DNA of 64,000 nt. Source: an uncultured Candidatus Saccharibacteria bacterium. Its GTDB lineage: Bacteria; Patescibacteriota; Minisyncoccia; Phycocordibacterales; Zambryskibacteraceae. Shown here one piece after another: positions 39,862 through 59,754 of the stretch. The notes beneath the pieces were generated by a model. That model worked only from the letters and a program-made list of their open reading frames with translations, was not told the origin of the DNA and searched no databases. The DNA lies in contig CAZDDU010000001.1 in NCBI GenBank assembly GCA_964504255.1, forward strand, positions 33,843-97,842. Reading direction: 5' to 3'. The position numbers and the translations under genes were made by a program. How positions within the stretch are numbered: position 1 is the first letter of the stretch; every line of letters begins with the position of its first letter.

Positions 39862-40337
39862 TTATTATATTTACCGATGGGGCAGCGAGGGGGAATCCTG
39901 GTGGAGGGGGTTGGGGGGCTATTATAGCCAAGGAGTTTGAGGTTAGGGAAATAGGAGGCAAGGATCCATACACCACCAACAATAAGATGGAGCTTACTGC
40001 TGCCATAGAGGCACTTAAAACTTTAGAATTCGGAGTTGAGGTAGAGCTCTATACAGACTCAGAGTATGTCATGAAGGGGATGACTGAATGGGTATGGAAC
40101 TGGCAAAAGAATGGCTGGAAGACAGCTGCGAAGAAACCGGTAGAGAATCAGGATCTTTGGAAGGATCTTGTATCAGCCAGCGAAGGAAAAAACATTTCTT
40201 GGAAGTATGTTGCCGGTCACTCGGGGAACGAGGCAAACGAGAGATGTGATGAGATAGCGACTAAGTACGCAGACCATTTATCCGTAGAACTATATGCAGG
40301 GAGTCGGGGCGAGTACCCAATCAGTCTCAAGGCCTAA
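39858..40337 (+). CDS. rnhA: ribonuclease HI
   Basis: IFTDGAARGNPGGGGWGAII, TNNKMELTAAIEAL, SGNEANERCDEIA. Confidence 0.9.
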   Translation: MIIIFTDGAARGNPGGGGWGAIIAKEFEVREIGGKDPYTTNNKMELTAAIEALKTLEFGVEVELYTDSEYVMKGMTEWVWNWQKNGWKTAAKKPVENQDLWKDLVSASEGKNISWKYVAGHSGNEANERCDEIATKYADHLSVELYAGSRGEYPISLKA

Positions 40338-41751
40338 TCTTAAAATCCTTCTAGCACTCTGGGGATTCATCTTTGGTATTCTCTTCGCTTCAATAATTTC
40401 GATACACCCCCTTGTATCTATCCTGATTATCTTTGTCGCGCTAACCATTTATGTATTGGATAGAAATGTTTTTATTTTAATAATACTGGTTGCTTTATCC
40501 TTAGGAATACTCAGATACGATATCAAAGACTTTCATGAGTTGTCGCCAGCGGGGAATATGGGTGTAGTGGTGTCCGAGCCCGAGAGCAGAGACAAAGACA
40601 CTCGTTATGCGGTTCTTACTAATACTAGAGAAAAAGTTTTGGTCACTGACGAGATCTTTAGCAAGGTTGAATATGGAGATGAAGTTAAGTGGATAGGAAC
40701 TCCTAAGACTCTAAAACCCGGTGGCTATGCCAACTATTTAGCCAAGGATGATATTTTCTACACCCTTGAGAGAGCGAAGGTGGAGATTGTTTCTCACGAT
40801 AAAGGAAACAGTGTTAAGAGCACTCTCATCAAGGTTAAAAGGTTTCTCACTGACAAAGTTAAAAGTATCTTGCCCGAGCCTGAGGCCAGCCTCCTCTCGG
40901 GCCTAATCGTCTCGGGCAAGCAAGCATTACCCAAAGAAACTTTAGAGAGCTTCAAGGATGCTGGAGTGGTACATATGGTCGTGCTCTCGGGTTACAACAT
41001 TACGATAATCGCTGAATTCTTGCTCATCGTCTTTGCGTTTCTTGGTTCTAGAATTTCAGGCTTTATCGCACTTGGGGGAGTAGTGCTCTTTACTATTATG
41101 TCTGGAGCGCCTGCGACGGTCGTTCGGGGTGCCATTATGGTTTCGTTCCTCTTGCTCGGCCGATTGATGAAACGACCCGGCTCGCCACCAAGAATACTTC
41201 TCTTCACTGCGGTATTGATGCTCCTACACAACCCAAAGATTCTGCTCTATGACCCATCCTTCCAGCTCTCATTCCTCGCTGTGCTCGGACTTATATACGG
41301 TACCCCTCTTGTCGAAAAGCTATTTGCCTCTCACGGTCAAGAGGGAAATTCGAGACAAACAGTTTTTCGACTTCGAGAATTAGTTTCCACCACTTTAGCT
41401 ACACAGCTCTTTGTCTTACCACTTCTTTTATATAGCATGGGCAACTTCTCACTCGTGTTCCTCTTCGCCAATATTCTTATCTTGCCCATTCTCCCAATCG
41501 TCATGCTCATCGGATTCATTGGCACACTACTTTCATTTGTACTTGGTGTCTTGGCTATGCCTATTAACTTCATTACTCACTTGCTACTCGCATACATACT
41601 TAAGGTTGCGGATTTCTTTGGTAACTTACCATTTGCGAGTTTAGAAATAGAAAACTTCCCCTTGTGGGGAAGTTTGGTGATGTATGCGTTGATATTTATT
41701 ATCGTCTGGCATTCTCGAAATTCATCTCCACGCTCTCCCAGTTTAGATTAG
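40294..41751 (+). CDS. comEC: ComEC/Rec2 DNA-internalisation channel, membrane part (DUF4131 + competence domain); no MBL domain in this ORF
   Basis: Multi-TM; LSGLIVSGKQALPKETLESFKDAGVVHMVVLSGYNITII competence motif; start may lie downstream of 40294. Confidence 0.75.
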   Translation: MQGVGASTQSVSRPNLKILLALWGFIFGILFASIISIHPLVSILIIFVALTIYVLDRNVFILIILVALSLGILRYDIKDFHELSPAGNMGVVVSEPESRDKDTRYAVLTNTREKVLVTDEIFSKVEYGDEVKWIGTPKTLKPGGYANYLAKDDIFYTLERAKVEIVSHDKGNSVKSTLIKVKRFLTDKVKSILPEPEASLLSGLIVSGKQALPKETLESFKDAGVVHMVVLSGYNITIIAEFLLIVFAFLGSRISGFIALGGVVLFTIMSGAPATVVRGAIMVSFLLLGRLMKRPGSPPRILLFTAVLMLLHNPKILLYDPSFQLSFLAVLGLIYGTPLVEKLFASHGQEGNSRQTVFRLRELVSTTLATQLFVLPLLLYSMGNFSLVFLFANILILPILPIVMLIGFIGTLLSFVLGVLAMPINFITHLLLAYILKVADFFGNLPFASLEIENFPLWGSLVMYALIFIIVWHSRNSSPRSPSLD

Positions 41752-42298
41752 AGAAGAAGGCTTCGACGTAATTCTTCTTCTCCGCAGGAGTGTAGTCGAG
41801 GTAGTAAGAATGCTCCCACATATCGAGTGCGAGTAGGGGTGTTGCTCCCTGTAGTTGTCCTAGATGTTGTTCATCTACCCAAGAAGCTAGGAAACGATCA
41901 TCTGCCTTGTCGTACCAAAGTATTGCCCAGCCTATTCCTCGAGTCAGTGCCAAGGCTTTAAATTCGGTTAGAAATTTATCCATTGAGCCAAAGAGTTCGA
42001 GAAGTCTCTTGCCTAGCTCGCTTTCCTTATTTAATTCTTTACCTCCACCAGAAAGGGAAGAGAAGTAAACTTCATGGTTTCTCATACCATTGTATTCAAA
42101 GCTGAAACGACGAAATAACTCTCCGACTATGTAAGGATCCTTTGCGCTATCAAGGGATGACATCTTTTCCATAATGAGGTTCGCGTTCTTCACATAACCG
42201 GCATATAGTTTAAGATGCTCATCAATAGTCTTTTTAGAAATGCCGACCAAGTCTCCGATTTCAAATTTCTTTTCTTCGAATGTTTTCATGTACTCCAT
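41699..42298 (-). CDS. sodA: Fe/Mn-family superoxide dismutase
   Basis: DMWEHSYYLDY C-terminal signature; overlaps both flanking ComEC pieces by about 50 bp. Confidence 0.7.
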   Translation of the reverse strand: MEYMKTFEEKKFEIGDLVGISKKTIDEHLKLYAGYVKNANLIMEKMSSLDSAKDPYIVGELFRRFSFEYNGMRNHEVYFSSLSGGGKELNKESELGKRLLELFGSMDKFLTEFKALALTRGIGWAILWYDKADDRFLASWVDEQHLGQLQGATPLLALDMWEHSYYLDYTPAEKKNYVEAFFSNLNWESVEMNFENARR

Positions 42299-43121
42299 TA
42301 TAGCAGTTTTGGTTTTCTCTAACCTTTTTGTGTGGTCGAGAGTTTATTCGAGTAATGAAAGTGAGCTCAAAGTCTACTTCCTCGATGTGGGGCAGGGTGA
42401 CGCGATACTCATTGAGTCGCCCACACAAGGTAGAGTACTTATAGACGGCGGGCCAGACAGGAAGGTGCTAAGTGAGCTTGGTCGAGTCCTGCCCTTCGGT
42501 GACAGACATATTGATGTGGTCATAGAGTCGCACCCAGATGCTGACCACATTACTGGCTTAGTGGAGGTGATAAATAGATTCGGTGTGGATACATTTGTCT
42601 CAACCGGCATGAGATCGACTAACTCACTTGATGAAACACTAGACGAAGTAATACAAGAAAAAGAAATAAATAAGATCCAAGCCAAGAGGGGGGTAAGTCT
42701 CGACCTCGGTGGTGGAGTTGTGCTCACATTGCTCTATCCAAGTGGAAGTATAGAGGGCCTCGAGACGAACGAAGCCTCAATAGTCTCGAAGCTTACTTTG
42801 GGTGAGATGGATTTTATCTTGACTGGAGATTCGACCAAGCTCGCAGAATATAAATTACTCTCATTAAACAAAGAGCTATTGGATTCAGAAGTGTTACAAG
42901 TTGGGCACCATGGGTCAGAGACCTCAAGCTCTCTACTGTATGTACAAGCCGTGAGCCCAGAGTACTCTGTCATCTCTTCGGGCAAAGATAATAGATATGG
43001 TCACCCACACAAGGTAACTCTCGACACATTAAACAAGATAAAGACAAATATATTAAATACTGCAGACGTCGGTAGAATCTTATTTAAAACAGATGGAGAG
43101 AAACTCGAGGTCGAGTATTAG
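42240..43121 (+). CDS. ComEC-type metallo-beta-lactamase domain protein (separate ORF with its own TM helix)
   Basis: VYFLDVGQGDAILIE...VIESHPDADHITGL...QVGHHGSETSSS MBL motifs. Confidence 0.75.
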   Translation: MPTKSPISNFFSSNVFMYSIIAVLVFSNLFVWSRVYSSNESELKVYFLDVGQGDAILIESPTQGRVLIDGGPDRKVLSELGRVLPFGDRHIDVVIESHPDADHITGLVEVINRFGVDTFVSTGMRSTNSLDETLDEVIQEKEINKIQAKRGVSLDLGGGVVLTLLYPSGSIEGLETNEASIVSKLTLGEMDFILTGDSTKLAEYKLLSLNKELLDSEVLQVGHHGSETSSSLLYVQAVSPEYSVISSGKDNRYGHPHKVTLDTLNKIKTNILNTADVGRILFKTDGEKLEVEY

Positions 43122-44916: not shown

Positions 44917-44983
44917 TCCAATCCAACCCTAACAATTTGTGCTGTATAATTAGTGCTAGTTATTTATTAAGCATTAATTATCT

Positions 44984-45505
44984 TTGATGAGAAAATTACA
45001 AAATACTGCCGCCGTCTTCTTTATATGTGCGGTCTTTATCCTTACTATAGTCTCAGTATTCGGTGTGTGGGATCTGTTTGACGGAGATGTCGTTTGGAAG
45101 TCGTTCCAGACCCTAGGCCTGCTATCTATTGTTGCGCTAATAATTATCAAGGCAGGCAAGGTTATGGATGACAAGGCTGGCAGCGTCACTCCTCCACTTG
45201 AGATTTTCGCCTCAATAAGAAAGACGGCTTTCGCTATCCTCATTGTTTCAGCATCGCTCCTCGCTCTTCTCGGCGTGATGTCTATTTGGGATGTTATCGC
45301 TGACAAGGATGTGTTGTATAAGTCTCTCGGATCACTCGTAGTTATCGCCTTCTCTGCCGGAGTGGTCAAAGTAACTTGTGATGCTATGGAGGGTGAGGAT
45401 AGGGTTCATGCTCCTGCTACTACCTCAAACCCAGTTCCTGCGCCAGCACCTGCTCCAGCCCCCACGCAGTACACCCAGCAGAGCGTACCCCCACAGAATC
45501 AGTAG
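44984..45505 (+). CDS. hypothetical 4-TM membrane protein with Pro/Ala-rich tail, inserted between rpsG and fusA
   Basis: 173 aa; PAPAPAPAPT C-terminus. Confidence 0.5.
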   Translation: MMRKLQNTAAVFFICAVFILTIVSVFGVWDLFDGDVVWKSFQTLGLLSIVALIIIKAGKVMDDKAGSVTPPLEIFASIRKTAFAILIVSASLLALLGVMSIWDVIADKDVLYKSLGSLVVIAFSAGVVKVTCDAMEGEDRVHAPATTSNPVPAPAPAPAPTQYTQQSVPPQNQ

Positions 45506-45583
45506 GTCCACGCCTTCTTTCCTTGTATTTTTGTAGGTCGAAATGTACTCTAAGGTCAGACACATTCTCACTTTGAGGTAGCG

Positions 45584-45796
45584 ATGATACTTTCAGGTTT
45601 TTCTCCCAACCAGCAGTCTATGTATGGTGTCAGGAAACAGGTTCGGGTCATCAGGGTGACCGGCACCGTCAACGATCCTTGGTATACGATCAAGAACCCA
45701 CTCGGCAAGAAGTATGTTCTCGGCGTCAGAGACCTCCATGGAGTCAGGGTCCTGGGCGTCTTCAAGAGAGAACGCACTAAGAAACCTCGGGCATGA
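45584..45796 (+). CDS. small hypothetical protein (70 aa) with its own SD and terminator
   Basis: GAGGT 5 nt upstream of ATG; hairpin AACCTCGGGCAtgaTGCCTGAGGTT + TTTTC at 45774-45808. Confidence 0.5.
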   Translation: MILSGFSPNQQSMYGVRKQVRVIRVTGTVNDPWYTIKNPLGKKYVLGVRDLHGVRVLGVFKRERTKKPRA

Positions 45797-45897
45797 TGCC
45801 TGAGGTTTTTCATTTGATTATCTATTGAACTTGCGGTATCGTAAGGGCATCTAAGCCATTTAGGCTTTTTATTTTTATCCCAACAAATTAATAATTT

Positions 45898-48066
45898 ATG
45901 GAACGAGATTATCCTTTAGAGAGAGTTCGAAACTTCGGTATTATTGCGCACATCGATGCAGGCAAGACCACGACTTCAGAGCGCGTGCTCTTCTACACCG
46001 GAGCTCAACACAGTATTGGTGAGGTGCACGAAGGTGAGACTACTACTGACTGGATGGAGCAGGAGAGGGAGCGCGGTATTACTATTACTGCAGCTGCTAT
46101 TACATGTTTCTGGGCGCCAACATATCTAAGTGATGCAGATAGAAACGATGCGAAGAAGAAGTTCCGCTTCAACGTGATCGACACTCCTGGGCACATTGAC
46201 TTCACCGTGGAGGTTAAGAGAAGTCTTCGAGTGCTCGATGGCGCAGTGGTCGTCTTCGACGGCGTGGCAGGAGTAGAGCCTCAGTCTGAGACCAACTGGC
46301 GTTATGCCGAGGAAGCTCAGGTGCCTCGCATCTGCTTCATCAACAAGCTCGACCGTACAGGAGCTTCTTTCGAGCGCTCATACAAATCTATTTTAGACAG
46401 ACTTTCTAAGAAGGCGGTTCGCTTCCAGATCCCAATTGGTGAGGAGGACAAGCATGAGGGAGTTATAGACCTACTTAAGATGAAGGCGTACTTCTTCGAG
46501 GGCAACATGGGTAACAAGGTTATAGAGAAGGATATCCCAGCTGAGTACATGGCTGATGCTACCAAGTATCGTGCTGATCTTGTGGAGAGAATCGTAGAGA
46601 ACGACGAGGGTCTCATGACCGCGTACCTAGAGGGTAAGGAGATCTCTATCGAAGCACTCAAGGAGACTTTGAGAAAGGCTGTGATTGCGAACAAGATCTT
46701 CCCTGTGATGACGGGTTCTGCTCTTAAGAACAAGGGAGTACAGCTTGTACTCGATGCGGTTGTTGATTACCTACCAAGTCCACTCGACATCCCCCCAGTG
46801 AAGGGTATTAACCCAGAGACAAATGAAGAGGTACTTAGACATGCGTCTGACACAGAGCCTTTCTCTGCACTCGCCTTCAAGCTACAAGCAGACCCATTCG
46901 TTGGTCAGCTTACGTTCTTCCGCGTGTACTCAGGAACAATTGAGAGTGGTTCTTATATATACAACTCAACTACAGGCAACAAGGAGAGATTAGGACGCAT
47001 TGTTCGTCTTCAGGCCAACCAAAGAGAGGAGGTTAAGAAGGTTTTCGCAGGAGAGATTGCTGCAGCTGTAGGACTCAAGGAGGCGAAGACTTCGCACACC
47101 TTCTCTGACGAAGCAAACCCAATTATCCTCGATCAGATCACCTTCCCAGAGCCAGTTATCTCACTTCGTATCGAGCCTAAGACCAAGGCCGACCAAGAGA
47201 AGATGGGTATGGCACTTAAGCGTCTGTCAGACGAGGATCCAACATTCAGAATTAAGTCTGACTCAGAGACAGGGGAGACTGTGATCATGGGTATGGGTGA
47301 GCTACACCTCGAGATTATTGTCGACCGTATGAAGAGAGAGTTCTCAGTCGAGGCGAATGTGGGCAAGCCTCAGGTGGCATACAAAGAGACTATTACTGGA
47401 TCTGCAGAGGTGGAGAACAAGTACATCAAGCAGACAGGAGGTAAGGGTCAATACGGTCACGTTAAGATCACTATCAAACCAATTGAAGCACTCGACCCAG
47501 AGGCCAAGATTCCTAAGAATGTGCACCGTGAGGAAGGATTCGAGTTCATCGACTCTATTAAGGGAGGAGTTATTCCACAGGAGTTTATCCCAGCTGTTGA
47601 GAAGGGTATTAGAGAGGCAATGGACAGAGGTATCCTTGCAGGATTCAAGATGACAGATATTTCTGCCGAGCTCACTTATGGTTCTTACCACGATGTGGAT
47701 TCTTCGGAAATCGCATACAAGATTGCAGCCTCACAGGCGTTCCAAGAAGCAGCTAGGAAGGCGAAGCCGGTAATACTCGAGCCAATCATGAAGGTTGAGG
47801 TGGTTGTGCCAGAGAAGTTCATGGGAGATATTACTGGTAACCTCTCAAGTAAGCGCGCACAGATCGAAGCAATGGAAGACAGAAACGAACTCAAGGTCGT
47901 ACGTGCCAAGGTGCCTCTATCCGAGATGTTCGGTTATGTAACCAACCTCCGTTCAATGACCGAGGGTAGAGGATCATCAACTATGGAGTTCGACCACTAC
48001 GCTATCGTGCCTAAGAATGTCGAAGCCGATATTATTGAGAAGAGAACCGGTGCTAAGGCTGCATAA
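45898..48066 (+). CDS. fusA: translation elongation factor G
   Basis: [10 protein letters not shown]1, DTPGH; 722 aa. Confidence 0.95.
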
Positions 48067-48095
48067 ATAAAGTAAGTTAGAAAGACAAAACCTTC

Positions 48096-48124
48096 TTGAC
48101 AATCTAGGAGGTTTGTGCTATTAT
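48096..48124 (+). promoter_or_regulatory. near-consensus sigma70 promoter driving the GC-rich SPFH gene
   Basis: TTGACA - 17 nt - TATTAT; AAGGAGG SD 8 nt before the ATG at 48212. Confidence 0.6.
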
Positions 48125-48211
48125 CGAAGTAGAGTACTTTTAGTTGTAAGTTGTGTGTACATGCTTCAAATTCGTAGGTCCACGTAGTTCCCCCTCAAGG
48201 AGGAGTTTCGA

Positions 48212-49273
48212 ATGCCCGGGTTGAAGTTCGTTCTCAACGCTGTTGTCGTACTGCTCTTGGTCTACATCTCGAGCTTCGCGTTCGACCTCATGAACTACCC
48301 CGACGACTTCGCGGTCGCCGGAGGGATCGCCATCCTCGTGGTGGAGTTCCTGGTGGCGATGTACATGATCAAGAAGAACCCCTTCTCCGCGATCTCTCGC
48401 AAGGGAGCGAGCGGGAAGAAGAAGCCGACGAACAAGACGGCGGCCATCATGCTGATCGTCGGTATCGTCGGGGCAAACACGGCCTGCTATCAGGTCGTCG
48501 AGCCCGGACACGCTGGGATCAAGATCAACATGGCCGGTAGTGACCGAGGTGTCTCTGACATCACGGTCCAGACCGGACGTGTGTGGTACAACCCGGTCAA
48601 TACGCGGGTGTTCGAATACCCGACCTTCGTCCAGACAGCTGTTTGGAAGAGGGATTCGGAGCTGAACGAAGAGATCTCGTTCAACAGCAAGGAAGGAATC
48701 ACCTTCACCGCTGATCTGTCGCTTTCGTGGCAGATCCAGACTGACAAGGTGCCGAACTTCTACGTCATGTTCCGCAACGATGATGTGACGGCGTTCACGC
48801 ACGGGTTCCTTCGGAACATCGCGCGCGACGCCTTCACCGAGATCGCGCCCAGTTACACAAGCGAAGAGATCTACAGCACCAAGATGGGCGAACTCGTCAC
48901 TCGGGTCAAGGCCCGCACGGACTCGCTCATCGTCGCATACGGCGTGCATCTCCAGCAGTTCGGCTTCATCGGAGCCCCTCGCCCACCTGAGAACATCGTC
49001 AAGTCTCTCAACCTGAAGACCCAGGCGATCCAGGACGCGAGTGCGGCCGAGAACAAGCTCCGGCAGACGACTGCCGAAGCTCGGATGGCTGTTGCAAAGG
49101 CGCAGGGCGAGGCAGAGGCTAATCGCGCCCTTGCCAGCTCCCTCACCACTTCGATGCTCGAGTGGCGAAGACTGGAGATCACCGAGCAGAGCATCAAGAA
49201 GTGGGATGGGAAGTTGCCGGTCTATTCCGGTGGTACACTTCCCCTGATCCAACTGCCGACGCCGAATCGGTAA
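48212..49273 (+). CDS. SPFH/band-7 (HflC/stomatin-like) membrane protein; GC-rich
   Basis: N-terminal TM; SPFH core (ELNEEISFNSKEGITFTADLSLSWQI...) and AEARMAVAKAQGEAEANRAL coiled-coil tail; about 60% GC versus about 45% in flanks. Confidence 0.7.
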   Translation: MPGLKFVLNAVVVLLLVYISSFAFDLMNYPDDFAVAGGIAILVVEFLVAMYMIKKNPFSAISRKGASGKKKPTNKTAAIMLIVGIVGANTACYQVVEPGHAGIKINMAGSDRGVSDITVQTGRVWYNPVNTRVFEYPTFVQTAVWKRDSELNEEISFNSKEGITFTADLSLSWQIQTDKVPNFYVMFRNDDVTAFTHGFLRNIARDAFTEIAPSYTSEEIYSTKMGELVTRVKARTDSLIVAYGVHLQQFGFIGAPRPPENIVKSLNLKTQAIQDASAAENKLRQTTAEARMAVAKAQGEAEANRALASSLTTSMLEWRRLEITEQSIKKWDGKLPVYSGGTLPLIQLPTPNR

Positions 49274-49339
49274 CTAAGCCGCAAGATGTAAGGAAAAGTC
49301 GTTCGACTGCTCCACATCGAGCGGCTTTTCTGTTGTGTT

Positions 49340-49368
49340 TTGACAACTAGGGAGTTTTGCTTTAACTT
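49340..49368 (+). promoter_or_regulatory. sigma70-like promoter upstream of the cold-shock gene
   Basis: TTGACA - 16/17 nt - TTAACT/TAACTT. Confidence 0.45.
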
Positions 49369-49512
49369 ACGACACAGACTTGTAGGACGACGAGCAATCC
49401 AGCCGTCGAACGATAGGGGGCAGCAATAGTGCACATGTCTCGGAGTAGCGGACAGGCTCGCGCGGGTGCTCATGGTCACAGGGGCAACAAGCGTCGAAGC
49501 AAGAAACCGAAG

Positions 49513-49749
49513 AGCATGCCTGTGAGTCTGCTTGTCTCGGAGAGGCAGCACGGAGTGGTGAAGTGGTTCAGTGAGAGTATGGGCTACGGCTTCATCGGTC
49601 GGAAGAAGGGGACTCCCGATGTCTTCGTCCATTACTCGAGTATTCTCGGCACCGGCTTCAAGAGCCTCGCCGAAGGCAACAGGGTTGCCTTCGATGTCGA
49701 GAGGACGAAGAAGGGTCTCGCGGCTACGAATGTGAGGGTTGTGGACTAA
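49513..49749 (+). CDS. cold-shock domain protein (CspA family); GC-rich; long 5' UTR
   Basis: GVVKWFSESMGYGFI RNP1 motif, VFVHYS RNP2 motif; start chosen at internal Met (track ORF starts at 49429). Confidence 0.75.
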   Translation, partial: SMPVSLLVSERQHGVVKWFSESMGYGFIGRKKGTPDVFVHYSSILGTGFKSLAEGNRVAFDVERTKKGLAATNVRVVD

Positions 49750-49750
49750 T

Positions 49751-49777
49751 CCCGCCAAATGGCGGGTTTTTCTTTTC
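49751..49777 (+). terminator. intrinsic terminator after csp
   Basis: CCCGCCaaatGGCGGG followed by TTTTTCTTTTC. Confidence 0.7.
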
Positions 49778-49819
49778 TAGATCCTCATGTATAGTGCTTA
49801 ACAGGCCCTTATTCCGGAG

Positions 49820-50194
49820 GTGGGGATGTACACGGATGGTAGTATTGGTGGTGATGAGGAGACGGTGGGGAGGGATGCTCAACCTATCACAGCTGAGGAG
49901 TGGATCATTCTCGAGAGACTCTTCTCGAGCGATCGCACAAGGGAGGTGTTGGTGGCCCTTCGCCTGAACGACAACGATCCCGTCGAGGTGTCGGAGTTCA
50001 CTGAGATCCGCTTCACGAGGAGTGTCCTCGGGGGTATGTGTTCTGTCCTCACCCGAGAGAAGGTTGAATTAACCCTAGCTCTGCTTTACCCCAAGAAGCC
50101 CATGCGGGCTAACAAGGTCTTCTTCAAGCGAGTGGTGAGACCCAAGGTCACCGACTTCCAAATGTCTCAGATTCGAGCTGCGCCCTGTCACTAG
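49820..50194 (+). CDS. hypothetical protein, GC-rich
   Basis: 124 aa; about 55% GC; no motif recognised. Confidence 0.45.
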   Translation: MGMYTDGSIGGDEETVGRDAQPITAEEWIILERLFSSDRTREVLVALRLNDNDPVEVSEFTEIRFTRSVLGGMCSVLTREKVELTLALLYPKKPMRANKVFFKRVVRPKVTDFQMSQIRAAPCH

Positions 50195-50210
50195 ACGGGG
50201 CTTTTTCTTT
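50182..50210 (+). terminator. intrinsic terminator after hypothetical gene
   Basis: GCCCTGTCactaGACGGGGC followed by TTTTTCTTT. Confidence 0.55.
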
Positions 50211-50217
50211 GCTGGGA

Positions 50218-50246
50218 TTGACTATTATTGGGCTAAACAGTAATAT
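50218..50246 (+). promoter_or_regulatory. near-consensus sigma70 promoter about 175 nt upstream of tuf
   Basis: TTGACT - 17 nt - TAATAT. Confidence 0.55.
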
Positions 50247-50420
50247 GTCGCGAGCGCTATACCGCTTCTGCTTGTTCTTTGAGGCCTCTCAATATGGGCT
50301 GAGCTAAGCGGTTTTGCGTTCCTCGTCACTACGAGGTTGAATCGGAACTGGAAGAAGATGTGTTCTCGAACTTCTTCTGTTTCTGAAAAACTTAATTAAT
50401 TAAATTTATACATAAAATAT

Positions 50421-51623
50421 ATGGCAGACGCTTTTGATCGCTCAAAGCCACACGTAAACGTCGGTACTATCGGCCACGTTGACCACGGCAAGACGACTCT
50501 AACCGCAGGTATTCTCCATGTCCTCGACATGAATAAGGACAAGGGTTACGGTGCTCGTGTTGAAGCAATTGATAAGATCGACTCAGCTCCTGAGGAGCGT
50601 GAGAGAGGTATTACTATCGCCCTCCACCACTCAGAGTACTGGACACCAGCTCGTCACTACGCACACATCGATGCGCCAGGACACGCTGACTACATCAAGA
50701 ACATGATCACCGGTGCCGCTCAAATGGACGGTGCAGTGCTCGTGGTTGCAGCAACTGACGGTGTTATGCCTCAGACTCGTGAACACATCCTTCTTGCTAA
50801 GCAGGTTGGTGTGCCTAAGATTATCGTCTTCCTAAACAAGTGTGACATGGTTCCTGACAAGGAGCTTATCGACCTTGTGGAAGAGGAGATCCGCGATCTT
50901 CTTACTAAGCACGACTTCGACGGTGCTAACGCGCCTGTGATCCGTGGCTCAGGTCTTAAGGCTCTTGAGGCTAAGGATATGAGTGATGAATGGGCACAAA
51001 AGGTGTTCGAACTCATTTCTACTCTTGATACCTACTTCCCAAATCCAGTTCGTGAGATGGACAAGCCATTCCTTATGCCAATTGAGGACATCTTCTCTAT
51101 CGAAGGTCGTGGAACAGTGGTTACAGGTCGTATCGAGAGAGGTATGGTCAAGGTTGGTGAGGATGCAGAGATCATCGGTCTCCGCGACACCATGAAGACT
51201 ACTGTTACTGGAATTGAAATGTTCAACAAGCAGCTCCAAGAGGGTATGGCCGGAGACAACGCCGGAATCCTACTCAGAGGTGTGAAGAAGGAGGACCTAT
51301 CTCGCGGTCAAGTTATCGCAAAACCAGGTTCAGTTACTCCTCACACTGAGTTTACAGCTGAGGTGTACATCTTGAAGAAGGAGGAAGGTGGTCGCCACAC
51401 TCCATTCTTCACTGGATACAAGCCACAGTTCTACATCCGTACAACTGACGTTACCGGAGAAGTAACTCTAAACGCAGGTGTCGAGATGATCATGCCTGGA
51501 GACACAGCAACCTTCAATGTGAAGTTGACCGCTCCTGTCGCTCTTGAGGATCAGACTCACTTCGCTATTCGCGAGGGTGGTAAGACAGTGGGTGCCGGTG
51601 TCGTAACAAAGGTCGTTAAGTAA
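50421..51623 (+). CDS. tuf: translation elongation factor Tu
   Basis: [22 protein letters not shown]. Confidence 0.95.
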
Positions 51624-54362: not shown

Positions 54363-54395
54363 CAGGTCCGCTCACTACAAGTAAGAACCAAAAAA

Positions 54396-54419
54396 ACTCG
54401 CTCAAGGGCGAGTTTTTTG
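54396..54419 (+). terminator. intrinsic terminator (copy 1 of 3 identical hairpins)
   Basis: ACTCGCtcaaggGCGAGT followed by TTTTTTG. Confidence 0.75.
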
Positions 54420-54459
54420 TTAAGGTGGTGGGAGATACGACCTCAACCAGGAGCCCATT

Positions 54460-54843
54460 ATGTCTAAAAGGCATGGTACCGCCAGACCAGTTGGTTCTTT
54501 CCGTGATGGAGATGTTGTTAAGGGTAAAATAATCACCGTCTTTGCAACTACTCGTAATACCGATCTCGCCGAAGGTCGCGGCCAAACAATTGACCATTCA
54601 TATCATTTGAGCGCGCACGACGCGAAGACTGGAGCTCATGGTATCGATGTGATGGGATCAGATGGTAAGACCAAAGAAGTTTTGGCTCTTCAAGAAGACG
54701 AAAGCGGGAGAGTTTATCTCTTCGCCAACAACTCTTCACCGGTTACCATTAAAGAGGATCCTGAAGCACTTGCCAAACTTCGGAAAAGCGCCTTCAACAA
54801 GTTGAGTTCTAGTGAGAGGGCGGCACTGAATCTTGGTGATTAG
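54460..54843 (+). CDS. hypothetical small protein (cassette between rplB and rplJ)
   Basis: 127 aa, no motif recognised. Confidence 0.45.
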   Translation: MSKRHGTARPVGSFRDGDVVKGKIITVFATTRNTDLAEGRGQTIDHSYHLSAHDAKTGAHGIDVMGSDGKTKEVLALQEDESGRVYLFANNSSPVTIKEDPEALAKLRKSAFNKLSSSERAALNLGD

Positions 54844-54858
54844 ATCTTGTTGGTCATG

Positions 54859-54881
54859 ACTCGCTCAAGGGCGAGTTTTTT
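54859..54881 (+). terminator. intrinsic terminator (copy 2, identical hairpin)
   Basis: ACTCGCTCAAGGGCGAGTTTTTTG. Confidence 0.75.
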
Positions 54882-54895
54882 GATATATTCGACAA

Positions 54896-55384
54896 ATGAA
54901 AAAATTAGATAAAAAGGCTGTTTGGTTGTTCTTCCTTCAGTACGTTTGGAGCTTTGTTTACCTTGGAGCTTTCGTGGTCGCTATTACACTTTCTGCTCTT
55001 GATGGGGAGATTTCTGTTATGGCGGTACTTAACCTGATTGGCTGGGTTCTGCTGACCGTATTACTTGTTTCCTATTTTGTATCACATCTTGCTTACAAGT
55101 TTTATCTATACGAACTTTCGAATATTGGGTTCAAAAAGGAATCTGGAATTATTTGGAAGCAGTATGTCACCATCCCTTACGATAGAATTCAGAATGTAGA
55201 TATTTATCGAGGAGTTCTAGCAAGAATCCTTGGTCTCTCGGACCTGCAAATTCACACCGCTGGAGTTGGTGGAGTAGCGATGGGTGAAGGTAGGTTACCT
55301 GGACTCTCGATGGCCGATGCGGAAGTAATGCGAGATGAGCTAATAAACAGATCTAGACAATCAAGATCAGGTCAGGGTCTTTAA
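54896..55384 (+). CDS. bacterial PH-domain (bPH_2/YdbS-like) membrane protein
   Basis: Two TM helices then YVTIPYDRIQNVDIYRGVLARILGLSDLQIHTAG, typical of the bPH_2 fold. Confidence 0.6.
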   Translation: MKKLDKKAVWLFFLQYVWSFVYLGAFVVAITLSALDGEISVMAVLNLIGWVLLTVLLVSYFVSHLAYKFYLYELSNIGFKKESGIIWKQYVTIPYDRIQNVDIYRGVLARILGLSDLQIHTAGVGGVAMGEGRLPGLSMADAEVMRDELINRSRQSRSGQGL

Positions 55385-55391
55385 AGAAAAA

Positions 55392-55414
55392 ACTCGCTCA
55401 AGGGCGAGTTTTTT
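55392..55414 (+). terminator. intrinsic terminator (copy 3, identical hairpin)
   Basis: ACTCGCTCAAGGGCGAGTTTTTTG. Confidence 0.75.
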
Positions 55415-55450
55415 GATAGTCTCAAGGCAGACGACTCCAGGGAGGATTAA

Positions 55451-55669
55451 ATGGCGCATGGGCCTTTAGTGTTGACGATCAATCGAGATGAAGAGCGGGC
55501 GCTTAAGTTCGCAGAAGAAGTAGTAGAGCGATGTCCAGAAGTTCGCGTGAGCAAGATGATTGATTTCGGTCCACCAGAACTCTGCCATGGGATTGGTCGC
55601 TACATCTGGCCGGAAGGCAAGATCAGGAAGTTTTTGAACAAGAAGTTCAATTTGGAGCCCCCGCTGTGA
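55451..55669 (+). CDS. small hypothetical protein (72 aa) with GGGAGG SD
   Basis: SD GGGAGG 7 nt upstream; terminator AGCCCCcgctgtgaGGGGCT + TTTTTC at 55656-55679. Confidence 0.45.
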   Translation: MAHGPLVLTINRDEERALKFAEEVVERCPEVRVSKMIDFGPPELCHGIGRYIWPEGKIRKFLNKKFNLEPPL

Positions 55670-55689
55670 GGGGCTTTTTCTTATCTACA

Positions 55690-55887
55690 CATTTATACCA
55701 AGGCCCGGCCTTGGTAAGGGGAGGTTGTCAGGGTAGGCAAATTGATGTAGAGTAGTCGACAAAGGTCAAAGACAGAAGGCCCTTCGAATACCTCAGGGTA
55801 AACGATATAAGCCCTTCCGAGATCACTCTCAATCCGAGACCTTTGTGGTCGATTTTATTTGTCTAAATAACAGACAAACACAAAACA
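55690..55887 (+). promoter_or_regulatory. candidate ribosomal protein L10 leader (autoregulatory 5' UTR of rplJ-rplL)
   Basis: About 200-nt structured ORF-less region directly upstream of rplJ, begins with perfect hairpin ACCAAGGCCcgGGCCTTGGT; identity by position only. Confidence 0.35.
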
Positions 55888-56376
55888 ATGGCAATTAATA
55901 AACAAAAGAAAGGAGAGATCATAGATAAGCTCTCGAAGGCTGTCAAGGATGCAAAGTCCTTGGTCTTCGTGAACTTCCATGGACTCAAGGTATCCGACAC
56001 TACCAACCTCAGGCGCGAGCTTAGGAAGGAGGGTGTGGAGTACCAAGTATCTAAGAAGACTCTCACCAAGCGCGTACTCGATTCCGAGAAGTTTGAGGGC
56101 ACAATGCCCGAACTCGAGGGCGAGCTCGCTATGGCATGGAGTGAGGATCTCATCGCACCTGCACGAGGTGTACACACTTTCGCTAAGAAATTTCCAGAGG
56201 CTCTAAAGATCCTTGGAGGAGTCTTCGAAGGTAGGTATATGAGTAAGGCAGAGATGATGGAGATCGCTACCATACCTCCAGTTGAGGTACTTAGAGGTAA
56301 GTTTGTAAACATTATTAACTCACCAATCCAGCGCTTCGCAATAGCTCTTGGAGAGGTAGCAAAGAAGAAAAATTAA
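55888..56376 (+). CDS. rplJ: 50S ribosomal protein L10
   Basis: [45 protein letters not shown]. Confidence 0.9.
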
Positions 56377-56377
56377 A

Positions 56378-56737
56378 ATGACAAAAGAACAAATCATCGA
56401 GGCAGTTGAGAAGTTGTCAGTCCTCGAACTCAACACACTCGTAAAGGCAATTGAGGAGAAGTGGGGAGTATCAGCTACAGCGGTTGCTGCCGCTGGTCCT
56501 GCCGCTGGTCCTGCTGAGGAGGCTAAGAGTACAGCCGATGTAGAACTTACTGACGGCGGTGCAAACAAGATTGCAGTCATCAAGGTCGTGAAGGAAGTAC
56601 TAGGACTTGGTCTCAAGGAGGCTAAGGACATGGTAGACGGTGCTCCAGCAATGCTTAAGGCCGGTATGAAGAAGGAGGACGCCGACGCTCTTAAGAAGAA
56701 GATCGAGGAGGCTGGTGGAAAGGTTACTCTTAAGTAA
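56378..56737 (+). CDS. rplL: 50S ribosomal protein L7/L12
   Basis: [31 protein letters not shown]...[22 protein letters not shown]. Confidence 0.95.
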
Positions 56738-56763
56738 GTTTTCTCCAAAAGTTTCTCATCACA

Positions 56764-56790
56764 AAACTCCCCGAAAGGGGAGTTTTGTTC
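56764..56790 (+). terminator. intrinsic terminator after rplL
   Basis: AAACTCCCCgaaaGGGGAGTTT followed by TGTTC. Confidence 0.7.
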
Positions 56791-56831
56791 ATACTAGCGC
56801 TTTCGGGGGAGTGGGAGTAAAATACGCCCAC

Positions 56832-57404
56832 ATGGGGAAATCAATTTCACACTTATTTGGGAGTGAAGCGAAGGTCAAGATCATGCGTCTCTTTGTCTTC
56901 AACAAAGGATCAATATTTACTGCGAAGACTATTAGCGAGAGAGTGCAGGCAAGTGCCAAGGTGGTGAGGAAGGAGCTCACTAGTCTTATCAAGGCTGGTC
57001 TTGTATATAAGAGAGCAAGGGGTTATGTCCTTAATGCTGAGTATGACTATCTTAAGGCGGTAGAACGATTCTTGATCGAGGCCACACCAATCTCGGAGAA
57101 GGAGATCATAAGGAAGCTCTCTAAGGCGGGTAGTATGCGACTCATCCTTACTTCCGGCGTCTTCAAGCAGGACTCTGAGGCTAGAGTAGATCTACTTGTG
57201 GTGGGGGATAAGATCAAGGAGAGCACTCTTCTTCGCGCTATTAGCTCTCTTGAGGCAGATTTGGGCAAGGAGCTCCGCTTTGCGGCCTTTGAGACTCCTG
57301 ATTTCAAGTACCGCCTAGGTATATATGACAAACTTGTTCGCGACATCTTAGACTATCCACACAGGAAATTGGTCGATAAGGTCGGTCTCCAACCTAAGGT
57401 ATAA
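56832..57404 (+). CDS. winged-helix domain protein, function unknown
   Basis: TISERVQASAKVVRKELTSLIKAGLV wHTH-like N-terminus; start at Met40 of track ORF. Confidence 0.5.
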   Translation: MGKSISHLFGSEAKVKIMRLFVFNKGSIFTAKTISERVQASAKVVRKELTSLIKAGLVYKRARGYVLNAEYDYLKAVERFLIEATPISEKEIIRKLSKAGSMRLILTSGVFKQDSEARVDLLVVGDKIKESTLLRAISSLEADLGKELRFAAFETPDFKYRLGIYDKLVRDILDYPHRKLVDKVGLQPKV

Positions 57405-57455
57405 TATTTAGAAGCCCGCAAGGGCATTACTAGATAAACTGTACAGTAAGGATTT

Positions 57456-58148
57456 ATGTATATCAGCAACTGGGGAAACGTGCTTACGCTCTCGTTCCAG
57501 AATCTCTGGATGGGTATCGTTAGTTTCGTCCCGAACCTTGTCGTCGCGCTTATCATCGTCATTCTCGGATGGCTCGTTGGCGCATTGCTCGGCCGGGCAA
57601 TTTGGCAAGTGTTCCGCTCTTTGAAGGTTGACGAAGCACTTCGTCGCGCAGGATTCGAAGGATTCCTCCGCCGTGGTGGTGTTGATCTTGACTCGGGCGC
57701 GTTTATTGGCGGTCTTGTAAAGTGGTTTGTAGTAGTTGTTTTCTTGGTAGCGGCCTTCGACGTTCTCGGCCTTACTCAGGTTAACCTCTTCCTACAGCAG
57801 GTTGTTATAGCTTACCTTCCTCGCGTTATCGTAGCCGCTTTGGTCATCCTCGTTGGAGGTGTCATCGGCGACGTAGTCGAGAGAGTTGTAGTTACAGCAG
57901 CTCGTACTGCAGAGATTCGCTCAGCACACTTCGCTGGAGCAGTGTCTAAGTGGGCGGTTTGGGTCTTCGCTATATTGGTAGCGCTTTCTCAACTCGGCAT
58001 CGCAACGGCTTTCAGCCAGACACTCTTCACCGGTATCGTTATCGCTATCTCACTAGCACTTGGTCTCTCCTTTGGTCTTGGTGGCCAGGAGGCAGCAGCT
58101 CGATTCATCGAGAGGCTCCGAGGCGACATGGGTGGCAAGCACAACTAA
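57456..58148 (+). CDS. membrane protein with duplicated conserved-TM-helix repeats (MscS-N-terminal-like)
   Basis: Two repeats of amphipathic-helix + TM segments; elevated GC (about 54%). Confidence 0.5.
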   Translation: MYISNWGNVLTLSFQNLWMGIVSFVPNLVVALIIVILGWLVGALLGRAIWQVFRSLKVDEALRRAGFEGFLRRGGVDLDSGAFIGGLVKWFVVVVFLVAAFDVLGLTQVNLFLQQVVIAYLPRVIVAALVILVGGVIGDVVERVVVTAARTAEIRSAHFAGAVSKWAVWVFAILVALSQLGIATAFSQTLFTGIVIAISLALGLSFGLGGQEAAARFIERLRGDMGGKHN

Positions 58149-58184
58149 TCAGGGTATTTCGCTAGATAATACCTAGATAACAAA

Positions 58185-58209
58185 AAGAGGCTCTAAACAG
58201 CCTCTTTTT
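58185..58209 (+). terminator. intrinsic terminator
   Basis: AAGAGGCTctaaacAGCCTCTT followed by TTTTG. Confidence 0.7.
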
Positions 58210-58225
58210 GCTACTTATAAATTGC

Positions 58226-58254
58226 TTGACAAGTAGGGCGAAGTATGCTAAGGT
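58226..58254 (+). promoter_or_regulatory. sigma70-like promoter of GC-rich cassette gene A
   Basis: TTGACA - 17 nt - TAAGGT; AGGAGG SD 7 nt before the ATG at 58316. Confidence 0.5.
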
Positions 58255-58315
58255 TAATACAGTAGTTTCCCGTTCCTTCAGCAGCAAAGGCACCCAACTT
58301 CTAGGAGGCAGTCGT

Positions 58316-58951
58316 ATGACCAAGCCCGCCAAGCAGTCGAAGCCCCAGTCCACGCGCTTCTCGCTCGACCACGATGGGCTCACCGAGTTCCTCGTAGCGT
58401 TCCAGATCATCTGGGCCGCGGTGCGGGCGCTCTACAAGGGTCCCCACGGCGAGAACGACCAGACGCGGAACTTCGTCCGACGCATGGAGCAGATGGTCCG
58501 GCACGCCAGCCCTCTCCTCGAGGACGGCGAGACCGACCACAACTCCTACGAGAAGACGATCAAGCTCGGCGCGGCGCTCATGCGCCAGATCGAGGAGTAC
58601 ATCGACGACATCCTCGATTCCGACCGCGCGAGGGAGTTCTTCGACCGCGCTTCGAGCGAGATCCAGGAGATCTGGCCCGAGGTCTGGGCGGCGAAGAAGA
58701 ACGAGATCCTCGAGAGCCGTGCCCGCTTCCAGCAGGCGAACGCCTCGGAGACCGCGGAGGACCTCAAGAAGATCGTCCTCGCATACAACGCGACGACCGA
58801 GCTCCTTGCCAGGGCCAAGGCCGAGGCCGAGAACAAGGCGTCTGCCGAAGCCAACCGTCTCCGTCAGGCGAAGGAGGCTCAGGAGAAGCTCGCCCGGTTC
58901 GAGAAGAACCGCACGCGCGGCCGCTCTGTCCTGGCCCAGCTCTCGGCCTGA
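58316..58951 (+). CDS. hypothetical protein A, very GC-rich (about 65%), coiled-coil C-half; C-terminal tail RTRGRSVLAQLSA
   Basis: Diverse amino-acid composition on + strand versus L/R/G-rich antisense ORF; SD AGGAGG. Confidence 0.6.
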   Translation: MTKPAKQSKPQSTRFSLDHDGLTEFLVAFQIIWAAVRALYKGPHGENDQTRNFVRRMEQMVRHASPLLEDGETDHNSYEKTIKLGAALMRQIEEYIDDILDSDRAREFFDRASSEIQEIWPEVWAAKKNEILESRARFQQANASETAEDLKKIVLAYNATTELLARAKAEAENKASAEANRLRQAKEAQEKLARFEKNRTRGRSVLAQLSA

Positions 58952-58992
58952 ACTGCACAACGCACGCTAACGCGTGCCCGCCCCACGAAAGT

Positions 58993-59019
58993 CCCCACGG
59001 ACAATCGTGGGGCTTTCTT
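58993..59019 (+). terminator. intrinsic terminator after gene A
   Basis: CCCCACGgacaatCGTGGGG followed by CTTTCTT; second hairpin GCACGCtaaGCGTGC just upstream. Confidence 0.6.
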
Positions 59020-59028
59020 ATTCATACA

Positions 59029-59057
59029 TTGACATTACTGCTATATTGTGATAATAT
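59029..59057 (+). promoter_or_regulatory. consensus sigma70 promoter of GC-rich cassette gene B
   Basis: TTGACA - 17 nt - TAATAT. Confidence 0.6.
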
Positions 59058-59118
59058 TAAATTAGATAAGCATTGTCTTAGCTGTACTTGAACAACTTAC
59101 CCTATTCCGGAGTTCTTG

Positions 59119-59700
59119 ATGAACCAGAAGAAGGCTGTTTCCGAACGAGCCCTGGGCTCTGTCCCGGTGGTCATGTTCTTCCTCAACGTGAACGGCGAGC
59201 ACCTCGTCCCCGACTCGGCGACGAAGGTTCCCGACAACCAGACGGCAGGGAAGTCACACACCGGTAAGCCCGGTATCATGCTCTGCCAAGGCAAGTCGGT
59301 GGATCTCGAGGGAGCACTCAAGGAGATCGAGCTCCGAGGGTACCTCCCCAAGAAGTTCACCTCCATCCATCGGTTCCAAGGAATCATGCATCGCATGGTG
59401 CTCGTCTGCGTTCACAAGGACGCGCCCGACAACGGCGAGGCGGCGAGCTTCACCGCCGAGCAGAGGGAGGATTTCCTCAAGCTGCTTCAGGGCTACAACT
59501 GGGACACCACCGTCTACCGGAATTTCTCCGAGACGGGAGGTAACTTCATCCTCATGGCCGGCAACCCCGATCGCCGGGAGGAGAAGGAGATCCTTCGGGT
59601 GAACGACGCGAACGAGTTCGAGATGGTGGATGCGGAGAAGGTCAAGACCGACCAGTCTCGGACGCGTGGTCGGGAAGCCCTCTCGCAGATCAGCGCGTAG
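59119..59700 (+). CDS. hypothetical protein B, GC-rich; C-terminal tail RTRGREALSQISA
   Basis: 193 aa; GGAG SD; shares a 12-aa C-terminal motif with gene A. Confidence 0.6.
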   Translation: MNQKKAVSERALGSVPVVMFFLNVNGEHLVPDSATKVPDNQTAGKSHTGKPGIMLCQGKSVDLEGALKEIELRGYLPKKFTSIHRFQGIMHRMVLVCVHKDAPDNGEAASFTAEQREDFLKLLQGYNWDTTVYRNFSETGGNFILMAGNPDRREEKEILRVNDANEFEMVDAEKVKTDQSRTRGREALSQISA

Positions 59701-59729
59701 GATCAGTTGGTGAGCCCTTCCTCGGGCTA

Positions 59730-59754
59730 GGCCGTCACATTGTGACGGCCTTTT
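59730..59754 (+). terminator. intrinsic terminator after gene B
   Basis: GGCCGTCACattGTGACGGCC followed by TTTTAC. Confidence 0.7.

Follow-up and report, generated by a model that had tools for sequence, protein, structure and literature searches.

Organization of the fusA–tuf Interval

In an uncultured bacterium of the candidate phyla radiation (CPR; Patescibacteria), the translation genes fusA (encoding EF-G) and tuf (encoding EF-Tu) are separated by an island of three GC-rich genes, which encode an SPFH-family membrane protein, a cold-shock protein (csp), and an orphan protein designated here ORF3. The present study concerns this island and the fusA–tuf spacer, or slot, that holds it. The window, that is, the whole stretch of DNA analyzed, comprises 64,000 nt of contig CAZDDU010000001.1 (assembly GCA_964504255.1). 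Gene coordinates were taken from a table of open reading frames (ORFs) and a Pfam scan, and promoters and terminators from a consensus scan of the sequence. Contigs compared with the window are numbered as loci (L001 and so on), with the window copy as the reference. The features of the interval are as follows.

45898-48066, + strand: fusA (EF-G), with Pfam domains GTP_EFTU, EFG_III, EFG_IV, and EFG_C; conserved left flank of the slot
48096-48124, + strand: predicted promoter of the SPFH unit, TTGACA-17-TATTAT with TG before the -10 element (11 of 12 matches in the promoter scan)
48120-49339, + strand: SPFH cassette (5′ untranslated region [UTR], Shine–Dalgarno sequence, coding sequence [CDS], and terminator), present or absent between strains
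48197-48203, + strand: SPFH Shine–Dalgarno sequence AAGGAGG, within the cassette
48212-49273, + strand: SPFH/prohibitin-family membrane protein, 353 amino acids (aa) (Pfam Band_7, 1.6e-23)
49307-49334, + strand: terminator-like hairpin and T-run following the SPFH gene (terminator scan)
49340-49368, + strand: predicted csp promoter TTGACA-17-TAACTT with a weak -10 element, read from the sequence; right copy of a 24-nt repeat
49369-49428, + strand: csp 5′ UTR, about 55-60 nt (strain alignment), with Shine–Dalgarno sequence GGGGG at 49416-49420
49429-49749, + strand: CspA-type cold-shock-domain (CSD) protein, 106 aa (Pfam CSD, 3.6e-24)
49751-49776, + strand: predicted csp intrinsic terminator (scan: six G-C pairs, then TTTTTCTTTT)
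49788-49795, + strand: candidate extended -10 promoter of ORF3, TGTATAGT, from reading of the sequence
49826-50194, + strand: ORF3, a 122-aa orphan without a Pfam match, hypervariable between strains
50182-50211, + strand: predicted ORF3 intrinsic terminator, overlapping the last ORF3 codons (scan: eight pairs, then TTTTTCTTTG)
50218-50246, + strand: predicted tuf promoter TTGACT-17-TAATAT, native and outside the island (promoter scan; kept in L086, L115, and L116)
50247-50420, + strand: structured tuf leader, right border of the slot (fold z = -4.45)
50421-51623, + strand: tuf (EF-Tu; Pfam), conserved right flank

The gap from the end of fusA at 48066 to the start of tuf at 50421 spans 2354 bp, and the ORF table, the Pfam scan, and the GC profile bear out a sequence-only reading that had placed three GC-rich genes in it. 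In 200-nt windows, GC content across 48200-50200 is 55-62%, against 46.4% for the whole window, with per-gene values of 58.6% (SPFH), 57.6% (csp), and 54.7% (ORF3). The shift is concentrated at third codon positions, where GC content (GC3) reaches 0.80, 0.71, and 0.675, respectively, compared with 0.486 +/- 0.067 (maximum 0.63) in the 50 host genes that served as the composition baseline. The sliding-window and codon-usage check that the same reading had proposed thus confirmed the island genes as three GC3-rich compositional outliers (GC3 z scores of 4.7, 3.4, and 2.8). The share of G at four-fold degenerate sites is 28-37% for the island genes, as against 7-17% for host genes. The claim that the GC shift is limited to coding DNA also held: the transition to high GC is abrupt and tracks CDS boundaries, and the spacers between island genes are host-like, at 39-50% GC.

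Consensus matches likewise agree with the view of the island as self-contained units, each gene having a predicted promoter, a Shine–Dalgarno site, and a terminator. Both terminators proposed previously, at 49751 and 50182, were called by the scan, as was a further hairpin at 49307; no terminator was called between fusA and the first island unit. The three promoters proposed for the island genes fared unequally. The one at 48096 stands; the one at 49340 has only a weak -10 element and was uncalled by the consensus scan, its position being conserved in L001-L003; and the one at 50218, formerly given to ORF3, lies 3′ of that gene and is reassigned to tuf, because it is downstream of ORF3 and conserved in relatives that lack the island. 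ORF3 itself probably has an extended -10 promoter, the candidate TGTATAGT, and a similar element precedes ORF3 in L116 and L115.

Two gene starts were also revised. A GTG at 49429, with GGGGG 8 nt upstream, is kept as the csp start in the divergent alleles of L001 and L002, so that the csp 5′ UTR is about 55-60 nt and not, as had been claimed, long. The third gene, recognized earlier as a 124-aa unknown, is real, but its start is more likely the ATG at 49826, with GGAGG 5 nt upstream, which gives 122 aa; all of its alleles begin MYTDGS or MYEDSS.

A tRNA scan found no tRNA gene near the island or within 25 kb of it, and Rfam detected no RNA family in the island, either at the gathering threshold on the whole window or at an E-value threshold on 47900-50600. 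The repeat search found no long direct or inverted repeats flanking the island; the 24-nt promoter repeat emerged only from the strain alignment. No recombinase domain was found with Pfam, and no integrase, phage structural, or phage replication gene lies in or next to the island.

Strain Variation at the Slot

The exact SPFH protein was read on 10 contigs from several sequencing runs and projects. On SPFH contigs the order fusA-SPFH-csp-ORF3-tuf is constant wherever the contig is long enough, and across every junction these contigs match the window at 99.5-100% identity. An identical EF-Tu is encoded on 13 contigs whose slot contents differ, and the configurations observed are the following.

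Window, L016: SPFH, csp, ORF3 (122-aa allele)
L011, L013-L015, L017: SPFH, csp, ORF3 (113-aa allele)
L003, L004, L006: csp, ORF3 (113-aa allele); no SPFH
L001, L002: csp (divergent alleles), ORF3 (119-aa allele); no SPFH
L115: csp, ORF3 (55% allele), tuf
L116: fusA, ORF3, tuf; no csp

In strains L001-L006 and L011-L015, EF-G is 99-100% identical at the amino acid level. The SPFH segment is present in L011-L020, and the blastn alignment of L001-L006 skips from about 48116-48119 to 49340. This indel is bounded by an imperfect 24-nt direct promoter repeat, TTGACAATCTAGGAGGTTTGTGCT at 48096-48119 (left) and TTGACAACTAGGGAGTTTTGCTTT at 49340-49363 (right), of which SPFH-less strains carry one copy. 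The limits of the ORF3 swap, at 49831 and 50201, are sharp: 49832 to 50200 is replaced by the 113-aa allele in many strains, while the flanks of the swap are 99-100% identical between strains. Compared with the window's ORF3, the 113-aa allele shows 32% identity by BLASTP and 31% in a global alignment, and other ORF3 alleles are 72-74% and 55% identical; the csp alleles of L001 and L002 are 42% and 61% identical to that of the window. The presence of SPFH is independent of which ORF3 allele a strain carries, with three of the four possible combinations observed. SPFH and csp also assort independently among strains, and the SPFH plus stress-protein module that had been proposed is not co-inherited.

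Divergence and Age of the Island Alleles

Synonymous divergence (dS) and its ratio to nonsynonymous divergence (dN/dS) were estimated by the Nei–Gojobori method, with the following dS values.

Window vs. L001: fusA 0.31, rpsG 0.35, rpsJ 0.25, tuf 0.07, csp 2.5, ORF3 0.9
Window vs. L003: fusA 0.04, tuf 0.004, ORF3 saturated
L001 vs. L002: fusA 0.22, ORF3 0.075, csp 0.97

Overall, dS ranges from 0.04 to 0.34 for fusA and from 0.004 to 0.08 for tuf, and from 0.7 to saturation for the island genes, ORF3 of L001 vs. L002 (0.075) excepted. Each gene thus has a separate history, and this mosaic of dS values points to repeated import of alleles by recombination. The dN/dS of the island genes is 0.16-0.42 (0.16-0.20 for ORF3 alone), as expected of functional proteins and not of decaying DNA. 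Despite saturated dS, all csp and ORF3 alleles have a GC3 of 0.58-0.81.

On these estimates the island alleles are much older than the backbone that carries them, which bears on the suggestion that the three genes were acquired recently. For SPFH the data support a recent, strain-variable gain. The suggestion fails for csp and ORF3, which have very deep alleles and occupy this site across a species complex with fusA dS of up to 0.3. Together, the ancient ORF3 alleles and the purifying selection acting on them suggest balancing or frequency-dependent selection, for example through interaction with a phage or a host.

The fusA–tuf Interval in Related Genomes

An EF-G scan, sampled at one genome per species, gave 80 relatives' loci for comparison of synteny. 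It returned Patescibacteria only, under Kaiser-, Nomura-, and Zambryskibacteria, Paceibacterota, and Minisyncoccia labels, the closest species-level relatives by EF-G being L086 (88%) and L025 (81%). In the synteny check that the sequence-only reading had proposed, SPFH, csp, and ORF3 were missing beside fusA in these two and in all the rest of the 80 relatives, and the trio is specific to one species complex. The interruption itself, which had been called unusual, is common in the class: the fusA–tuf gap ranges from 114 bp to over 4.8 kb, and in many relatives tuf is not found within 6 kb. The gaps contain toxin-antitoxin-like pairs (RelB/RelE-like and, once, nucleotidyltransferase/HEPN-like), genes for membrane or secreted proteins, and pyrimidine genes, with GC-shifted ORFs of other kinds occasionally present (L076 and L077). 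L025 has no tuf downstream of fusA. In L086 the gap is 436 bp and contains a different ORF, encoding a 52-aa membrane protein between a promoter and a terminator of its own; the tuf promoter and leader that come next are recognizably similar to those of the window.

The tuf leader is 174 nt long and folds far better than shuffled sequence (z = -4.45). Its 5′ domain is kept in L086 and its second hairpin covaries; a hairpin and U-run directly follow the tuf promoter in many relatives. The leader may serve the tuf-S10 operon as an attenuator or as a binding site for a ribosomal protein. When metagenomes were scanned with the leader pattern, only two loci emerged, both of already known types. Because tuf has its own predicted promoter and leader even without the island, in this lineage as well as in its closest relative, no operon would have been broken by the inserts.

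The SPFH Unit

The SPFH protein belongs to the SPFH/Band 7 superfamily by both sequence (Pfam PF01145, Band_7, 1.6e-23, residues 95-289) and predicted structure. Hydrophobic segments lie at residues 1-29, 30-55, and 77-96, and an AlphaFold2 model (mean predicted local distance difference test score, pLDDT, of 80) contains three N-terminal helices, an SPFH domain, and a 50-residue coiled coil, with helices at residues 260-310 and 313-330; hydropathy and model thus agree on an N-terminal membrane anchor and a C-terminal coiled coil. Foldseek matched the model to prohibitin, HflK/C, erlin, stomatin, and flotillin cages (E 3e-14, probability 1.0). No match was found in NCBIfam, in PADLOC, or, at the sequence level, in the PDB. 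An assignment as HflK/HflC was rejected, the gene standing singly between fusA and csp with no NCBIfam match. An SPFH-NfeD operon was likewise rejected: the neighbors are fusA and the CSD gene, with no NfeD domain, and the same holds in L021 and L118. By analogy with its family, the protein would form an oligomeric membrane scaffold or cage, perhaps buffering membrane or phage-related stress in an accessory role.

When the earlier suggestion of assessing the taxonomic affinity of the proteins was followed, SPFH pointed to Patescibacteria and phages. It matches phrog_200 over nearly its full length (9.6e-66), and its named homologs are annotated as Patescibacteria "prohibitin family" proteins. 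Relatives occur in 723 GenBank phages at 30-35% identity and, when an alignment was the query, on 317 IMG/VR contigs at up to 51% identity; the IMG/VR scan with the single SPFH sequence was negative. The closest partial homologs are 280-aa genes on two phage-like contigs. One, L022 (JGI Ga0672870_0000004, 231 kb; 64% identical), consists of tiny unannotated ORFs plus ThyX. The other, L117 (SRR21686421_16202, 51 kb, 56% GC; 58% identical), carries PD-(D/E)XK, AAA_24, PolA, and DnaB-like genes, that is, a phage replication module. Both copies are without the two extra N-terminal transmembrane segments. The closest cellular copies, in L021 (66%) and L118 (46%), are at unrelated sites, where they form stand-alone promoter-UTR-CDS-terminator units with a GC3 of 0.75 and 0.62 against 0.23-0.52 in their neighbors. 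These phage-contig relatives and stand-alone, GC-shifted cellular copies support the view that SPFH was drawn from a mobile, phage-linked gene pool.

The Cold-Shock Gene and ORF3

The csp product comprises a 38-aa basic N-terminal tail rich in Arg, Lys, and Gly, followed by a CspA-family CSD (Pfam CSD, 3.6e-24) in which both RNA-binding motifs, RNP1 (GYGFI) and RNP2 (VFVHY), are intact, and it matches CspC, CspE, and CspA in the PDB at 1e-16 to 1e-18. From this family membership we infer an RNA chaperone, to which the basic tail should add unspecific RNA affinity. In the strain alignment the csp 5′ UTR is more conserved than the CDS, but it has no significant fold (z = -0.4) and no match to the Rfam cspA thermoregulator, and the gene thus differs from the cspA type, a protein of about 70 aa with a long thermosensing UTR. 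PADLOC assigned no defense system to the island and matched only the generic CSD_V model; a retron CSD effector of the Se72 type was rejected (NF038236 at 51 bits against a cutoff of 82, no reverse transcriptase gene, no Rfam match). The long form of csp is confined to this lineage. Its CSD core shares 60-69% identity with CspA proteins, among which the few named matches come from non-CPR bacteria, and only 34-40% with CSDs in Paceibacteria loci. Its affinity thus leans toward non-CPR bacteria, with no firm donor call because the domain is too short.

ORF3, by contrast in affinity, is found in its own lineage only: it falls into only three clusters among 5.8e9 proteins, and a profile search gave three matches among 1.84e9 representatives, all from the same lineage. 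No family match was obtained in Pfam, PHROGs, NCBIfam, or PADLOC, and PHROG and phage searches found no phage homologs of csp or ORF3 beyond the generic CSD. ORF3, which would be a small cytoplasmic protein, ends in ..SQIRAAPCH, and in all configurations it directly precedes the tuf promoter.

A Probable Accessory-Gene Slot between Core Genes

Collectively, these data make it likely that the fusA–tuf spacer of this Paceibacteria-type lineage is a hot spot for accessory genes, a slot flanked by core genes. The slot would hold autonomous one-gene units, each with a sigma-70-like promoter, a short 5′ UTR, a strong Shine–Dalgarno sequence, a GC3-rich CDS whose codon usage is foreign, and an intrinsic terminator, and the terminators would insulate the units from one another and from tuf. 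Units and alleles would be gained, lost, and exchanged by homologous recombination, the 3′ end of fusA serving as the left homology arm and the tuf promoter, leader, and gene as the right one, arms that could be usable even between diverged lineages. Internal crossovers in the conserved promoter and terminator spacers between units would fit the breakpoints observed at CDS limits. Uptake of DNA followed by recombination would be the most plausible route, given that genes for ComEC, a type IV pilus, and RecJ lie 5-20 kb upstream: window positions 29751-35213 and 38089-43121 contain PilB (T2SSE), PilC (T2SSF), pseudopilin-like ORFs, RecJ, and a split ComEC, with its Competence domain at 40294-41751 and its metallo-beta-lactamase domain at 42240-43121. 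The distribution of the genes suggests an order of acquisition in which ORF3, which is constant, would be the oldest, csp intermediate, and SPFH, present in some strains only, recent. In a survey of 125 Patescibacteria genomes, genomic islands and horizontal gene transfer (HGT) were frequent, the latter mostly within the phylum, and acquired regions were enriched for tuf and ribosomal-protein genes (PMC12455944). The phenomenon is of a known and fairly ordinary kind; what is new is its location, the phage-type SPFH, and an orphan ORF3 with deep alleles.

Several points weigh against this interpretation. The promoter and terminator assignments are predicted, being consensus matches; transformation is read from the genes encoded nearby and the protein functions from their families. 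With three of the four combinations of SPFH and ORF3 allele seen, recombination between the two is not strictly proven. The searches identified no donor for csp or ORF3, and since ORF3 has no relatives outside the lineage, it is its composition that argues for a foreign origin. Finally, uniformly GC3-rich deep alleles could reflect a process acting in place, such as GC-biased gene conversion. On that account the three genes would be native and lineage-specific, their GC3 having risen through GC-biased conversion at a hot spot of recombination or through selection on codon usage or mRNA; the clear recombination at the locus and the lack of ORF3 relatives elsewhere both speak for it. This account stays alive because every csp and ORF3 allele is GC3-rich, but we regard it as unlikely, given that the spacers stay AT-rich, that other strain-variable cassettes of the same operon cluster (a 127-aa ORF, a bPH_2 gene, and a 506-aa ORF, see below) have host-like GC, that SPFH relatives lie on a 56% GC phage-like contig and are GC-shifted at unrelated sites in two other genomes, and that the csp CSD is nearer to non-CPR Csps than to the CSDs of Paceibacteria loci.

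Other explanations place the origin of the island elsewhere. The moron-like build of the genes, each of deviant composition and with a promoter and terminator of its own, and the abundance of the SPFH subfamily in phages would suit the remnant of an integrated phage or mobile element, with morons left after decay; such a remnant is improbable, however, in that no integrase, tRNA, att site, or phage structural or replication gene was found in or beside the island, the sole repeat is the 24-nt promoter duplication, csp and ORF3 are without phage homologs beyond the generic CSD, and the units assort independently. We give still less credence to the view that csp (as an RNA chaperone) and ORF3 (as a tuf- or ribosome-associated factor) extend the translation operon functionally, under common regulation with fusA and tuf, and are not neutral cargo. 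ORF3 always lies directly upstream of the tuf promoter, no terminator separates fusA from the first unit, Csps act on RNA, and both genes are under purifying selection; against this, the nearest species lack both, each gene has a separate terminator, csp is missing in L116, and the extreme allelic divergence of ORF3 is unlike that of translation factors. An assembly chimera joining GC-rich DNA into a low-GC contig, to which the abrupt GC shift might point, is effectively excluded, because identical junctions recur in at least 10 independently assembled contigs from several runs, projects, and different assemblers; moreover, the shift follows CDS boundaries with host-like spacers, and the same flanks occur in the related configurations of L115 and L116.

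Neighboring Variable Regions

Other junctions of the ribosomal cluster are interrupted as well. The rpsG-fusA junction (44917-45897) contains a 173-aa membrane ORF (44984-45505) and a 70-aa ORF (45584-45796) with a strong 14-bp terminator at 45780-45810; the 70-aa ORF is uncalled in L003, L004, and L012. Between rplB and rpsS, 5.5 kb apart (54363-59864), lie the 127-aa ORF, present or absent between strains and weakly matching phrog_5370, the bPH_2 membrane protein, a 72-aa ORF, rplJ-rplL, an MscS-like channel, a second island, and a 229-aa winged-helix protein resembling PADLOC PDC-M05A and Csa3-like regulators (2.5e-13).

The second GC-rich island (58316-59700; isl2A at 58316-58951 and isl2B at 59119-59700) lies between the MscS-like gene and rpsS and has a GC content of 60-65%, a GC3 of 0.84-0.92, and the same promoter-UTR-CDS-terminator build as the fusA–tuf island. 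In L105-L109, isl2B is replaced by the 506-aa ORF, of normal GC, and a GC-rich 179-aa ORF (L105 5861-8747). Searches of Pfam, PHROGs, NCBIfam, and phages found no match for the island 2 proteins, and PADLOC, applied to the window proteins and to the 506-aa ORF, was negative. Three GC-rich proteins that are otherwise unrelated have in common a C-terminal tail of about 20 aa, ..(S/T)R(T/G)RGR(E/S)(A/V)L(S/E/A)Q(I/L)(S/R)A-stop (window 58900-58951 and 59650-59700; L105 8690-8747), encoded by different codons, which indicates a signal at the protein level. The tail is possibly a targeting, secretion, or degradation tag, and its RxRxR recalls, as a putative likeness, C-terminal type IV secretion signals. 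One could go further and see in both islands a single, undescribed CPR phenomenon of cassette exchange, in which ribosomal-operon junctions would act as expression-ready docking slots for GC3-rich single-gene units from a GC-rich pool, some with the tail ..RxRGR..L.Q(I/L).A-COOH as a possible targeting or secretion signal, and in which ORF3 would be a phage- or host-interaction determinant under balancing selection; we consider this broader proposal doubtful.

Significance of the fusA–tuf Slot

The likely slot between fusA and tuf would mean that genome-reduced CPR bacteria keep flexible, strain-specific cargo even inside their most conserved gene cluster, and it may be one reason why tuf and ribosomal-protein regions of Patescibacteria are picked out by island predictors (PMC12455944). 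It also calls for caution with marker genes, as the ribosomal-protein blocks used for concatenation, binning, and synteny here carry compositionally foreign, strain-variable inserts despite an identical EF-Tu. The phage-linked SPFH subfamily and ORF3, an orphan with ancient alleles, are candidates for studies of symbiont–phage and symbiont–host interactions.

Comparison with Known Systems

The locus departs from the canonical str operon, in which fusA and tuf are adjacent and cotranscribed, in that tuf has its own predicted promoter and leader. A classical genomic island or integrative element was considered and rejected, as there is no recombinase domain, no tRNA within 25 kb, and only a 24-nt repeat around SPFH. 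Integron cassettes were rejected on inspection, since the units have their own promoters and no recombinase domain was present among the scanned proteins; attC sites were not searched for.

Individual island proteins resemble well-known families and depart from them in specific ways. Like prohibitin, HflK/C, stomatin, erlin, and QmcA, which form cages, the island SPFH combines a Band_7 domain with an N-terminal anchor and a long coiled coil. Unlike them, it has two extra N-terminal transmembrane segments, is encoded by a single gene without an HflK/HflC pair or an NfeD partner, and belongs to a Patescibacteria/phage subfamily. The csp product shares with the CspA family the CSD with RNP1 and RNP2 and its matches to CspC, CspE, and CspA, but it is 106 aa long with a lineage-only 38-aa basic tail, has a short UTR with no thermosensor detected, and is very highly divergent between strains.

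The units themselves invite comparison with phage morons of the Hendrix type, extra genes that have their own promoter, their own terminator, and a deviant composition. By consensus promoters, terminators, and composition the island units have this build, with a GC content unlike that of their neighbors, and the SPFH subfamily (phrog_200) is typical phage cargo. Unlike morons, which reside in a phage or prophage, they are in a cellular chromosome without a surrounding prophage, and csp and ORF3 have no phage relatives. Chromosomal hot spots of accessory genes, exchanged by homologous recombination in conserved flanks, were reportedly described by Oliveira et al. in 2017. As in such hot spots, the cargo here is variable, lies between invariant core genes without an integrase, shows mosaic divergence, and is present, absent, or allele-swapped among near-identical strains. 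Unlike HGT hot spots in general, however, the flanks are fusA and tuf, inside the str/S10 cluster, and the cargo is a string of single-gene promoter/terminator units with breakpoints at the limits of their coding sequences.

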